Shown in pieces: positions 23,186 through 25,541 of a stretch of DNA of 64,000 nucleotides. Both the position numbers and the translations under genes were made by a program. Source of the DNA: Escherichia phage HMD-6; sequence record PQ505080.1; one strand, 5' to 3'. Under the pieces are notes generated by a model. That model worked only from the letters and a program-made list of their open reading frames with translations. It ran no database searches and was not told where the DNA came from. Each line of letters begins with the position of its first letter. The first letter of the stretch is position 1.

Positions 23186-23536
23186 TCAGTAGATGTTTTG
23201 TTTAATCTCTATTCCAAACTTTTTAAACGAGTCAGCAGCAAGCATGAATTTACGAGCCGCTGATGGGTTAGAAGTATGCACGAAAATCTTCACGTTGTCA
23301 ACTACAGGAGGCTTACCAAATACAAATTTTTCCTCCAGCATAGACAGGCAATCGTACCCTTCAAATACCTCTCCAAGATCGTTGTCCATGTGCCACTCAG
23401 AAACGCGCCTGTAGAGCTTTCCCTTATCGTTAATAAAATCCATAAACTCAGAGGAATTCTTTAGCCAAAGAGCATCTGGGAGCCCATAATTTGACGGATC
23501 TCTCAAGTCATCCAGCCACACAATCAACTTCTTCAT
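23186..23536 (-). CDS. hypothetical protein (possible receiver-like small domain)
   Basis: 116 aa; N-terminal KKLIVWLDD strand-acidic motif and HMDNDLG; co-operonic with RNA ligase and Sir2. Confidence 0.3.
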   Translation of the reverse strand: MKKLIVWLDDLRDPSNYGLPDALWLKNSSEFMDFINDKGKLYRRVSEWHMDNDLGEVFEGYDCLSMLEEKFVFGKPPVVDNVKIFVHTSNPSAARKFMLAADSFKKFGIEIKQNIY

Positions 23537-24468
23537 TGCATATAGTCCTCGTTGTGGAAATAGCAGTCAAGTATCTCACGGCGTTCCTGCTCCAGGAGGC
23601 AATTCCACACATCTTCTGTGTAGTTTCTACGAATGAAGTTTACCATGCCGTAAAACTCTTCGTCAACACGTTTAAAGATATCATCATCCCAAATCTTCCA
23701 AGCTTTACCCCTCATTACGGCCTTCCGTGCCAAATAGTATGGAGACTTGATCTTCAGCTGCAGATCATAAGGGTAGTAAGGCTTACGAATCATATACCCT
23801 TCACCTCTTGTTTCTGCAGCTAATTCTTTTGCATAGCTGAACGGAATTTCACGCACAGTGTGAGGACGTTTTGCACCAAGGTATTTGGCAATCCCATCTA
23901 AAGCTGCTTCTGGTAGCATTATTCCAGAATCATTATATCTGCAACCTATCAAATATGCGCCATGATCTTCCCGAACAATATGCGGATCTGAAGGGTGACA
24001 AATTTCAAACATGAATGTCATGTTTTCATGACCCATAACCTTCTTGATAAGATCTAAATTACCACATTGCTCCTGGATTGTTTCCTTTGCAAGGTTACAA
24101 TATGGAGAATCAAGAGACCCTGTTGTTGAGAACAACAGTTCACCTTTGTGAGATGATACCACACCAAGGAATCCGTTCTTTTTCTCTACCGCCGTCACAA
24201 GCTTATTGTCAGGCAGGTTGGTGGAGTTTTCTCCCAAGTTAAACACTTTTGTGAAGGGCCATGCCACAACATTTCCTTCATTACCGACAACAATGCCCCG
24301 GCACTCCAGTAAACGAGGGGACAAATGCCATAAATTGTTGTAAAATACTTTTCTGGCATATTTATAGATCTTTAACCCAAGATCTGGGTAATATCTACTG
24401 GTTACAAGACCTTTGTCAACTAGGTCGTCTGCATTAAAATACTTCATCATACGTTCCTCATTTGTCAT
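23533..24468 (-). CDS. RNA ligase (nucleotidyltransferase superfamily)
   Basis: 311 aa; lysine motif I EKKNGFLGVV (KxNG), motif IV-like GEGYMIR, motif V-like LKIKSPYY. Confidence 0.6.
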   Translation of the reverse strand: MTNEERMMKYFNADDLVDKGLVTSRYYPDLGLKIYKYARKVFYNNLWHLSPRLLECRGIVVGNEGNVVAWPFTKVFNLGENSTNLPDNKLVTAVEKKNGFLGVVSSHKGELLFSTTGSLDSPYCNLAKETIQEQCGNLDLIKKVMGHENMTFMFEICHPSDPHIVREDHGAYLIGCRYNDSGIMLPEAALDGIAKYLGAKRPHTVREIPFSYAKELAAETRGEGYMIRKPYYPYDLQLKIKSPYYLARKAVMRGKAWKIWDDDIFKRVDEEFYGMVNFIRRNYTEDVWNCLLEQERREILDCYFHNEDYMQ

Positions 24469-24511
24469 TTTGTCAGTCTATCCTGCCACACAAATAACCT
24501 AGTGTCAACAC

Positions 24512-24540
24512 TTGAAATTAACAAAACAGTTAGGTATACT
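24512..24540 (+). promoter_or_regulatory. sigma70-like promoter for kinase/phosphatase operon
   Basis: TTGAAA (24512-24517), 17-nt spacer, TATACT (24535-24540); GGAGG RBS and ATG at 24569 downstream. Confidence 0.5.
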
Positions 24541-24568
24541 ATCGTTGAAATTAAAACGGAGGATTACT

Positions 24569-24979
24569 ATGTCTAAAATGCTATATATCGTGCGTGGTCT
24601 ACCAGGGTCTGGCAAATCAACACTGGCAAATGCGCTATCTTTAGAAGGTCTGTATCCACATTTTGAGAACGACATGTTCTGGTACGACGATGATGGAAAT
24701 TACAACTGGGATGCAAGTAAAGTAACACTTGCAGCAAAATGGTGCAAAGATAACGTAGAAGATATGATGCGTATGGGATACGACCGTGTCGTGGTAAGTA
24801 ATACGTTTACAAAAGAAAAACATGTGCAAGAATATATTGACATGGCAATTAGCTATGGGTACAATTATACAGTAATCGTGGTTGAAAACCGCCACGGTAA
24901 TAAGAGCATTCATGATGTTCCAGATAGGGTTGTGGACCGTATGGAGCGTGAGCTTAAAAACTGCATTAAACTTAAATGA
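24569..24979 (+). CDS. P-loop polynucleotide-kinase-like protein
   Basis: Start reassigned to ATG 24569 (track TTG start at 24512 sits on the -35). MSKMLYIVRGLPGSGKSTLA Walker A, later RVVVSNTFT and VIVVEN strands, ~136 aa. Confidence 0.6.
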   Translation: MSKMLYIVRGLPGSGKSTLANALSLEGLYPHFENDMFWYDDDGNYNWDASKVTLAAKWCKDNVEDMMRMGYDRVVVSNTFTKEKHVQEYIDMAISYGYNYTVIVVENRHGNKSIHDVPDRVVDRMERELKNCIKLK

Positions 24980-24986
24980 GGAATGT

Positions 24987-25541
24987 ATGAAATATTTTGT
25001 AACAAGCGATACACACTTTCTCCACCAGCGAGTCATGGAGTTTGATTCATGTCAAAAACACAGATCTCAGTATGATCGCAATCTTGACAGTATGAATGCA
25101 GGAATCATCGCCGAGTGGAACTCTGTTGTGTCACCGGAAGACACTGTGTTTCACTTGGGCGATATTGCATGCACTAAGGATAAGAATATCAACAAATTGC
25201 TCCCAGATGTTCTAAATATGTTGAACGGACATATTATTCTTGTTCGTGGTAACCATGACACAAGGACGACTGTCAGAATTATGAAAGAGTTCGGTCATGA
25301 GGTTGTAGATTATTACGAGCTTCGACACAACAAGAATTTGATCTGTATGAGCCATTACCAGTTTGCAAAGTGGAACAGAAAGCCTCACGGATCAGTCCAA
25401 CTGTTCGGTCATGCTCACGGAACCACACAGCAGTTGTTTGGCAGGCAGTTTGATGTCGGTTGGGATGTGTGGGGGAGACTCTTACCATTAGAAGAGGCAT
25501 ACCGTATTGCAATGAGTCTTGCTATTGACAGCGGGGAGTAA
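24987..25541 (+). CDS. calcineurin-like metallophosphoesterase
   Basis: Start at internal ATG 24987 (RBS GAGGA). Signature DTHF ... GDIA ... GNHD ... GHAH. Confidence 0.7.
   Translation: MKYFVTSDTHFLHQRVMEFDSCQKHRSQYDRNLDSMNAGIIAEWNSVVSPEDTVFHLGDIACTKDKNINKLLPDVLNMLNGHIILVRGNHDTRTTVRIMKEFGHEVVDYYELRHNKNLICMSHYQFAKWNRKPHGSVQLFGHAHGTTQQLFGRQFDVGWDVWGRLLPLEEAYRIAMSLAIDSGE

Follow-up and report, generated by a model that had tools for sequence, protein, structure and literature searches.

The question raised by one locus of Escherichia phage HMD-6 (sequence record PQ505080.1; the window is the whole stretch of 64,000 nucleotides analysed here) is whether an RNA ligase, a stand-alone P-loop kinase and a metallophosphoesterase, encoded side by side with several further genes, act jointly to heal and seal broken RNA ends. 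The genes between 21688 and 25541 probably work together, in this rV5-like phage, as a module that heals and seals RNA ends. A heal-and-seal role is supported by the families to which the proteins belong, by catalytic residues that are conserved, by the comparison of structures, and by the linkage and fusion of the genes; the enzymatic activities, the RNA substrate and the counter-defence purpose discussed below are inferred. A preliminary description of the window had placed such a set at 23533-25541, with a minus-strand RNA ligase bearing a KxNG motif, transcribed divergently from a stand-alone P-loop kinase and a calcineurin-like phosphoesterase, all three being separate polypeptides. The listing of open reading frames (ORFs) and Pfam matches above curated cut-offs confirm the three ORFs, their positions and their arrangement. 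The core idea stands as well, but the limits were drawn too narrowly: genes for a cREC protein, a sirtuin and a MazG-like protein, half of the module, lie directly downstream of the ligase and were missed (Table 1).

The predicted ligase, kinase and phosphoesterase

The ligase ORF encodes 311 residues, or 305 when read from the start at 24450 that is given in many GenBank records, and carries the segment VEKKNGF, in which the KxNG motif I falls at residue 96 of the longer form and residue 90 of the shorter. Searches of the PDB with the single sequences of the ligase and the kinase gave nothing useful, and profiles built from homologues were needed. The ligase matches Pfam RNA_lig_T4_1 (PF09511) over its full length (E=1.5e-14; 54.8 bits against a cut-off of 28.3) and phrog_562 (E=5.7e-66), and a database search returned 554 relatives, mostly of about 300 residues and mostly from phage-sized contigs. 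Among 26 aligned homologues, numbered here by the 305-residue form, R51/G52, K68/F70/N71, K90-x-N92-G93, F148/E149, E217/G218 and K233/K235 are invariant, and these positions align with the CRG, EKFFN, KEDG, FEF, EGY and KIK segments of T4 Rnl1. The motif I lysine (KxxG) is present, K90-K-N92-G93 aligning with T4 K99-E-D-G with asparagine rather than aspartate in the third position, and nucleotidyltransferase motifs III, IV and V are all kept, as are the Rnl1-specific upstream Arg and Lys/Phe. Because the profile matches only T4 Rnl1 entries among solved structures (2c5u at E=2.4e-14, also 9do4 and 5tt6) and the invariant motifs line up, the protein is, as judged by alignment, a nucleotidyltransferase of the Rnl1 family whose active site is intact. 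Its predicted activities are ATP-dependent self-adenylylation and the sealing of RNA.

Membership of the family does not extend to orthology with T4 RnlA, which is ruled out by the short C-terminus, by the threonine that the profile alignment sets opposite T4 K119, by KxNG in motif I and by the score against the RnlA equivalog model given below. The alignment to 2c5u reaches no further than T4 residue 250, and beyond motif V the window ligase continues for about 70 residues compared with about 130 in T4 Rnl1. The label 'tail attachment protein' that the ligase carries in GenBank is inherited from homology with T4 gp63 and is unsupported, a full-size T4-type C-terminal domain being absent.

The mechanical ORF of the kinase (24512-24979) is stretched to an upstream TTG codon; the real start is the ATG at 24569, with a GGAGG Shine-Dalgarno sequence 6 nt before it, in agreement with the annotation of phage RudolfGeigy of the BASEL collection. 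The protein matches Pfam AAA_33 (E=7.5e-11, above the curated cut-off) and belongs to a family of stand-alone proteins of about 130 residues that numbers more than 8000 clusters. A Walker A P-loop and a catalytic aspartate about 20 residues downstream are both present, and across 32 aligned homologues the P-loop (G10-LPGSGKST), D35, N78/T79 and an E-N-R-H motif that includes R108 are invariant. Full-length matches of the kinase profile among solved structures are Pnkp1, T4 Pnk, PSTK and Clostridium Pnk, with D35 aligned to D35 of T4 Pnk (1ly1); the top sequence hits are the stand-alone Mucorales kinases 9d8a and 9drz, matched mainly through the P-loop. The structural model of the kinase has the T4 Pnk kinase domain as its best match, with CthPnk and Pnkp1 among the top matches, and the modelled fold is nearest to known polynucleotide kinases rather than to nucleotide kinases. 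Phosphorylation of 5'-OH RNA or DNA is the predicted activity, for which the fusion of such kinases to an RNA ligase domain is indirect support.

For the phosphoesterase the mechanical ORF spans 24882-25541, again stretched to an upstream TTG codon, and the annotated real start at 24987 gives a protein of 184 residues. It matches Pfam Metallophos and Metallophos_2 (E about 3-5e-7, above the curated cut-offs), and in an alignment of 38 homologues the ligands of a binuclear metal site are all invariant (D8/H10, G58/D59, G88/N89/H90, H123 and G141/H142/H144), so that the pattern DxH, GD, GNH, H, GHxH is complete. RNA 3'-end healing, on a 2',3'-cyclic phosphate or a 3'-phosphate, is a plausible activity by analogy, because metallophosphoesterases of the same superfamily hydrolyse 2',3'-cyclic phosphates, the metallophosphoesterase of CthPnkp opening them in this way (PMC2190708). 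The protein itself lies outside the lambda-Pase/CthPnkp clade and within that of aq_1665. The phrase 'as in bacterial Pnkp' in the preliminary description is therefore true of the superfamily only, and overstates the analogy.

Conserved linkage and gene fusions in phages and bacteria

The strongest evidence for a joint function comes from the comparative context in phages. Of 80 IMG/VR loci with ligase relatives at 35-49% identity, 78 contained the ligase ORF, and the ORFs of these loci were searched with one profile per window protein. A phosphoesterase lay no more than 1.5 kb from the ligase in 54 of the 78 loci and a kinase in 51, with cREC in nine, Sir2 in eight and a DNA ligase in nine; a DNA ligase homologue was present somewhere in 34. 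When the ligases were clustered at 55% identity, kinase and phosphoesterase both lay within 3 kb in 19 of the resulting 24 lineages, and Sir2 and cREC accompanied the ligase in three. Because of this distribution the ligase, kinase and phosphoesterase are to be regarded as a conserved core, whereas Sir2, cREC and MazG are a lineage-restricted add-on. The order of the genes varies, with metallophosphoesterase-ligase-kinase (MPE-Rnl-Kin), Kin-Rnl-MPE and MPE-Rnl-cREC-Kin-Sir2 among the arrangements seen; the last of these, on a single strand, is that of the closest relatives, in which the MazG-like gene also occurs together with Sir2 and cREC. In all 78 loci these genes are co-directional with the ligase. 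The divergent pairing that had been singled out as a notable feature of the window is a peculiarity of this genus, and any special meaning of the layout is rejected on that account.

Kinase and ligase are fused in ten phage ORFs, of which the nine that are complete have 421-432 residues, and contigs anchored on the kinase include a kinase-phosphoesterase pair with an Rnl2-type ligase 2 kb away. The ligase family of the window is also present in bacterial genomes. About 50 loci of Neisseria, Moraxella, Kingella and Cardiobacterium encode a protein of about 490 residues in which kinase and ligase are fused, in most cases with an aq_1665-type phosphoesterase 0-1.3 kb downstream, and a Ro60/TROVE-vWA gene stands alongside in 31 loci and a gene for a Thg1-like tRNA 5'-repair enzyme in 11. 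In Leptolyngbya-type cyanobacteria (about 25 loci) the ligase domain is found at the C-terminus of proteins of about 712 residues, with RtcB nearby in 12 loci; the one such protein that was scanned (L150:4726-6864, Leptolyngbya sp. PCC 7375) reads AAA_33 - Metallophos - RNA_lig_T4_1, an architecture like that of Pnkp except that the ligase domain is of the Rnl1 type. Neighbourhoods with Ro60/TROVE, Thg1-like proteins and RtcB are recognised settings of RNA repair, and the chromosomal loci of Neisseriaceae, Moraxellaceae and Cardiobacteriaceae are a cellular island of RNA repair that shares its components with the phage module. The fusion partner, in phages and bacteria alike, is always an RNA ligase domain.

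Several smaller observations belong here. Nudix genes also often flank the bacterial kinase::ligase fusion, for which a locus of Neisseria flavescens (L093:1952-9404) may serve as an example, with similar loci within L089-L164. The profile phrog_8238 (737 positions) has its kinase match at the N-terminus and its ligase match at the C-terminus, a layout resembling that of the cyanobacterial protein of about 712 residues.

The cREC, sirtuin and MazG-like genes

The start codon of cREC and the stop of the ligase gene share 4 nt. The cREC protein matches PF20274 ('cyclic-phosphate processing receiver domain'; E=4.5e-14, 53.3 bits, cut-off 27), and in 11 sequences D9/D10, D51/D53 and N90/P91 are invariant and an acidic, Rec-like pocket is kept; cREC proteins are predicted to open cyclic phosphates (PMC9503650, PMC7824862). 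The sirtuin matches PF02146 (E=6.1e-27) and has E. coli CobB as its best solved relative (1s5p, E=2.3e-21). It keeps the GAGxSxxSGIPxFR motif for NAD binding and the catalytic histidine of HG, and is without cysteines at the positions of the zinc site in CobB; Iyer et al. (2022) have proposed that such a sirtuin strips the 2'-phosphate from RNA with NAD+ (PMC9503650). The MazG-like protein matches phrog_671 (E=5.4e-22), and searches of Pfam and of PDB sequences gave no match; its assignment as MazG-like is taken from PHROG 671 and the published description.

A proposed mechanism and its alternatives

In the mechanism proposed here, a metal-independent host RNase would cut tRNA or other RNA, leaving 2',3'-cyclic-phosphate and 5'-OH ends. 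The kinase of 136 residues would place a phosphate on the 5'-OH end, and the metallophosphoesterase, possibly helped or bypassed by cREC, would remove or open the cyclic phosphate or 3'-phosphate to yield a free 3'-OH. The ligase, adenylylated on the lysine of KKNG, would then reseal the break. The sirtuin and the MazG-like protein would probably provide a second, NAD+-linked route (removal of a 2'-phosphate) or clear by-products, following Iyer et al. (2022).

A number of points weigh against this reading. The ligase is without the full-size T4-type C-terminal domain associated with tRNA specificity, and it scores 38.5 bits against the T4 RnlA equivalog TIGR02308 (NCBIfam), for which the cut-off is 242. 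In the kinase the arginine three residues past the catalytic aspartate is absent, the position being W38 in this protein and F, Y or W across the family; in T4 Pnk (R38) and the Cth enzyme (R41) the arginine at this place binds the substrate. The invariant R108 of the E-N-R-H motif may be the lid arginine of the kinase. The closest relative of the phosphoesterase, aq_1665, is a protein of unassigned function, and other near folds include LpxH, YfcE and the DNA nuclease P. putida MPE. An ATP-dependent DNA ligase is encoded 2.5 kb away and leaves room for a role at DNA ends, the literature yielded no experimental study of the proteins of the module, and Iyer et al. (2022) name the kinase only a 'nucleotide kinase' (PMC9503650).

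The main alternative is itself a variant of the heal-and-seal reading, in which repair would be NAD+-dependent and of the fungal type. cREC would open the 2',3'-cyclic phosphate to a 2'-phosphate, the ligase would seal, and the zinc-less sirtuin would remove the 2'-phosphate by ADP-ribosyl transfer in the manner of Tpt1/KptA. The phosphoesterase and MazG would then act not on RNA ends but on by-products, clearing nucleotides and ADP-ribose cyclic phosphate. The genes for Sir2, cREC and MazG form one contiguous run with that of the ligase, whose stop the cREC gene overlaps, and in the closest relatives MPE-Rnl-cREC-Kin-Sir2 stand on one strand; the NAD-binding motifs and catalytic histidine of the sirtuin are kept and its zinc cysteines are absent. 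A KxNG motif I is known from fungal Trl1 ligases, which also counts in favour of this variant, as does the fact that it has already been proposed in print (PMC9503650). Yet the presence of Sir2 and cREC in three of 24 lineages, against kinase and phosphoesterase in 19, marks these genes as an add-on. The ligase profile, searched against solved structures at E<=1, finds T4 Rnl1 and no Trl1, and the removal of an RNA 2'-phosphate has no demonstrated precedent among sirtuins. This variant seems fairly unlikely. A combination of two 3'-healing routes in the rV5-type cluster, a widespread, metal-dependent one through the aq_1665-type phosphoesterase and an NAD+-dependent one through cREC and the zinc-less sirtuin by ADP-ribosyl transfer, is for its part a doubtful proposition, the evidence for which is gene linkage; others had hypothesised the NAD+-dependent sirtuin route earlier (PMC9503650).

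The remaining alternatives are less likely because of the gene fusions, the structural neighbours and the bacterial contexts described above. One is that the kinase, phosphoesterase, cREC, Sir2 and MazG serve small-molecule nucleotide or NAD metabolism, or interfere with defence signals, acting on free nucleotides, ADP-ribose derivatives or cyclic-nucleotide signals, with the ligase a mere neighbour. Iyer et al. (2022) place cREC, Sir2 and Nudix/MazG in an NAD-ADPr network (PMC9503650), one of the kinase-anchored contigs has an Rnl1-kinase pair beside NAPRTase, a PRPP-synthetase-like gene and Macro, and the fold relatives of the phosphoesterase include the nucleotide phosphodiesterases YfcE, MJ0936 and Rv0805. 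With kinase and ligase repeatedly joined in one polypeptide, such a reading is nevertheless quite improbable.

A second possibility is that the kinase and phosphoesterase clean 5'-OH and 3'-phosphate DNA ends for the DNA ligase encoded nearby. T4 Pnk and mammalian PNKP are able to process such ends, the DNA ligase gene shares the minus-strand block and has homologues in 34 of the 78 related loci, and Mre11/SbcD and P. putida MPE, a DNA nuclease, are among the proteins with folds near that of the phosphoesterase. The DNA ligase, however, comes within 1.5 kb of the RNA ligase in nine of 78 loci, whereas the kinase and phosphoesterase do so in 51-54, the bacterial loci yielded no DNA ligase, and the fusions always involve an RNA ligase domain, which makes a DNA-end role very improbable. 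The idea that the module serves processing of the phage's own RNA rather than counter-defence, for instance maturation of an unusual 97-nt tRNA-Lys(UUU) with a 26-nt insertion encoded 3.4 kb downstream, is extremely improbable, given that the occurrence of the trio in many phages and bacteria offers no specific link to this tRNA and that the insertion lies in the variable region, away from any canonical intron site.

Relation to known systems

The segment 23000-26000 was compared with nucleotide databases at megablast level and matched 119 phage records, nearly all of them rV5-like Vequintavirus myophages of E. coli, with identities of at least 90% in all but one and of 97.7% to Escherichia phage FV3. 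On this nucleotide identity the window is that of a Vequintavirus, an rV5-like phage of E. coli. Eighteen of the 119 records are titled 'Campylobacter phage', their DNA being near-identical to this segment as is that of the E. coli phages; the titles probably reflect isolation or labelling history rather than a real difference in host. In the matching GenBank records these genes already bear names like RNA ligase, polynucleotide kinase and phosphoesterase, and in RudolfGeigy the homologues are labelled 'RNA ligase', 'polynucleotide kinase' and 'putative phosphoresterase'; an ATP-dependent DNA ligase and a 'sirtuin domain NAD-dependent deacetylase' are annotated there at some distance downstream of the ligase.

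The cluster as a whole has been described as well. Iyer, Burroughs, Anantharaman and Aravind (2022; Viruses 14:1977, section 3.7.3) defined a neighbourhood for RNA repair centred on a sirtuin, 'type 2', for which Escherichia phage V5 and Proteus phage Mydo serve as prototypes, and proposed that RNA ends with a 2',3'-cyclic phosphate are cleaned up by it in an NAD+-dependent way before they are ligated (PMC9503650; see PMC7824862). Its content is the same (sirtuin, T4-like tRNA ligase, cREC, kinase, MazG and calcineurin-like phosphoesterase), the phage genus is the same, and all six genes are found within 21688-25541 of the window. The cluster is the same thing as type 2, and is already known as annotation and as a computational prediction of 2022. 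The difference is one of emphasis: that study centres on the sirtuin and calls the phosphoesterase 'occasional', whereas in the ligase-anchored loci sampled here the kinase and phosphoesterase are constant and sirtuin and cREC are rare.

With T4 Pnkp and Rnl1 the module shares its logic of a 5' kinase, 3' end-healing and an Rnl1-family ligase, and the two ligases have their nucleotidyltransferase motifs in common. The systems differ in several respects. In place of a kinase fused to a HAD phosphatase, the window encodes the kinase separately and a metallophosphoesterase takes over the phosphatase role; the ligase is shorter, with no full-size T4-type C-terminal domain, with KxNG where T4 has KxDG and with threonine at the place of K119; and the cREC, Sir2 and MazG genes are additions to the T4 set. 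In T4, tRNA repair by Pnkp and Rnl1 counters the anticodon nuclease PrrC, and by analogy a role of the window module as a counter-measure to anticodon nucleases is a reasonable proposal.

Bacterial Pnkp systems (Clostridium thermocellum Pnkp/Hen1 and Capnocytophaga Pnkp1-Rnl-Hen1) have a P-loop polynucleotide kinase, a binuclear metallophosphoesterase and a ligase in common with the module. Aquifex aeolicus aq_1665 (PDB 1xm7) is a metallophosphoesterase from structural genomics with no assigned activity or partners, and the phage and bacterial contexts suggest a role at RNA ends for its clade. In the split tRNA ligase system of the Mucorales (PMC10946435) healing and sealing likewise fall to separate polypeptides, but that is a eukaryotic tRNA-splicing pathway with a sealing-only ligase of the Trl1 type, separate healing enzymes and Tpt1, and the profile search of solved structures detected no specific homology of the window ligase to Trl1.

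As a discovery the cluster adds little, its genes being annotated and its neighbourhood published; its value is that of a tractable system for first biochemistry, in a group of well-studied and easily handled E. coli phages (the rV5/FV3 group), a member of which, RudolfGeigy, carries the module in the BASEL collection. If the heal-and-seal reading is true, the module would be a second, differently built version of the T4 tRNA-repair counter-defence. It would also provide a function for the orphan aq_1665 phosphoesterase clade and for the kinase family of about 130 residues, as well as a tractable system for the roles of cREC and phage sirtuins in RNA repair. Removal of an RNA 2'-phosphate by a zinc-less sirtuin would, if true, be a new sirtuin chemistry in place of Tpt1/KptA.

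Layout of the locus and neighbouring genes

Table 1. Positions of the module genes and of neighbouring features in the window
Feature	Position	Strand	Description
RNA ligase	23533-24468	minus	T4 Rnl1 (RnlA) family, short form, 305-311 residues
Divergent intergenic region	24469-24568		Promoter-like site and kinase ribosome-binding site
P-loop kinase	24569-24979	plus	136 residues, stand-alone, predicted polynucleotide 5'-hydroxyl kinase
Metallophosphoesterase	24987-25541	plus	184 residues, binuclear, aq_1665 clade, predicted RNA 3'-end healing
cREC	23186-23536	minus	116 residues, PF20274
Sir2-family protein	22416-23177	minus	253 residues, PF02146, zinc-ribbon cysteines absent
MazG-like nucleotide pyrophosphohydrolase	21688-22401	minus	237 residues, phrog_671
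ATP-dependent DNA ligase	19776-21059	minus	In the gene block shared with the RNA ligase
tRNA cluster	28477-29289	plus	Seven genes (ARAGORN, Rfam, RudolfGeigy annotation); context only

The divergent gap between ligase and kinase measures about 100-118 bp, depending on the ligase start, and contains a promoter-like TTGAAA-17-TATACT at 24512-24540, which, like the GGAGG before the kinase start, is a match to the consensus only; scans for promoters and terminators gave 33 such consensus matches compared with 19 expected, and lend weak support. Because only 7 nt separate the kinase stop codon from the phosphoesterase start, the spacing of these two genes is compatible with an operon. The cumulative GC skew has its minimum at 22000-24000, where GC and AT skew both change sign. 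The direction of the genes changes from minus to plus at the same place, where ligase and kinase diverge. Two small minus-strand ORFs of 89 and 102 residues (phrog_14585 and phrog_7684) occupy the interval 21059-21623, which separates the DNA ligase from the MazG-like gene; homologues of the first are found in 14 of the 78 loci and of the second in eight, and both accompany the module in the closest relatives.

The tRNA cluster, which the preliminary description had called adjacent, lies 2.9 kb beyond the phosphoesterase gene, and about eight small ORFs separate the two. It comprises tRNA-Arg (UCU), Tyr (GUA), Ser (UGA), an atypical Lys (UUU), Thr (UGU), Met/Ile (CAU) and Pro (UGG). The plus-strand gene at 28757-28847 is a long-arm tRNA-Ser(UGA) according to ARAGORN and is unannotated in RudolfGeigy; its best Rfam score is to the tRNA-Sec model, at 41.5 bits, below the gathering threshold of 47. 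At 28946-29042, also on the plus strand, lies a tRNA-like gene of 97 nt for which ARAGORN gives an odd anticodon of four bases. Aligned to the Rfam model, it is a tRNA-Lys(UUU) whose variable region carries a 26-nt insertion, which is rare among class I tRNAs, and its homologue in RudolfGeigy is annotated tRNA-Lys. PrrC-type nucleases have tRNA-Lys(UUU) as their classic target, so this atypical phage tRNA might be a decoy or a resistant variant.

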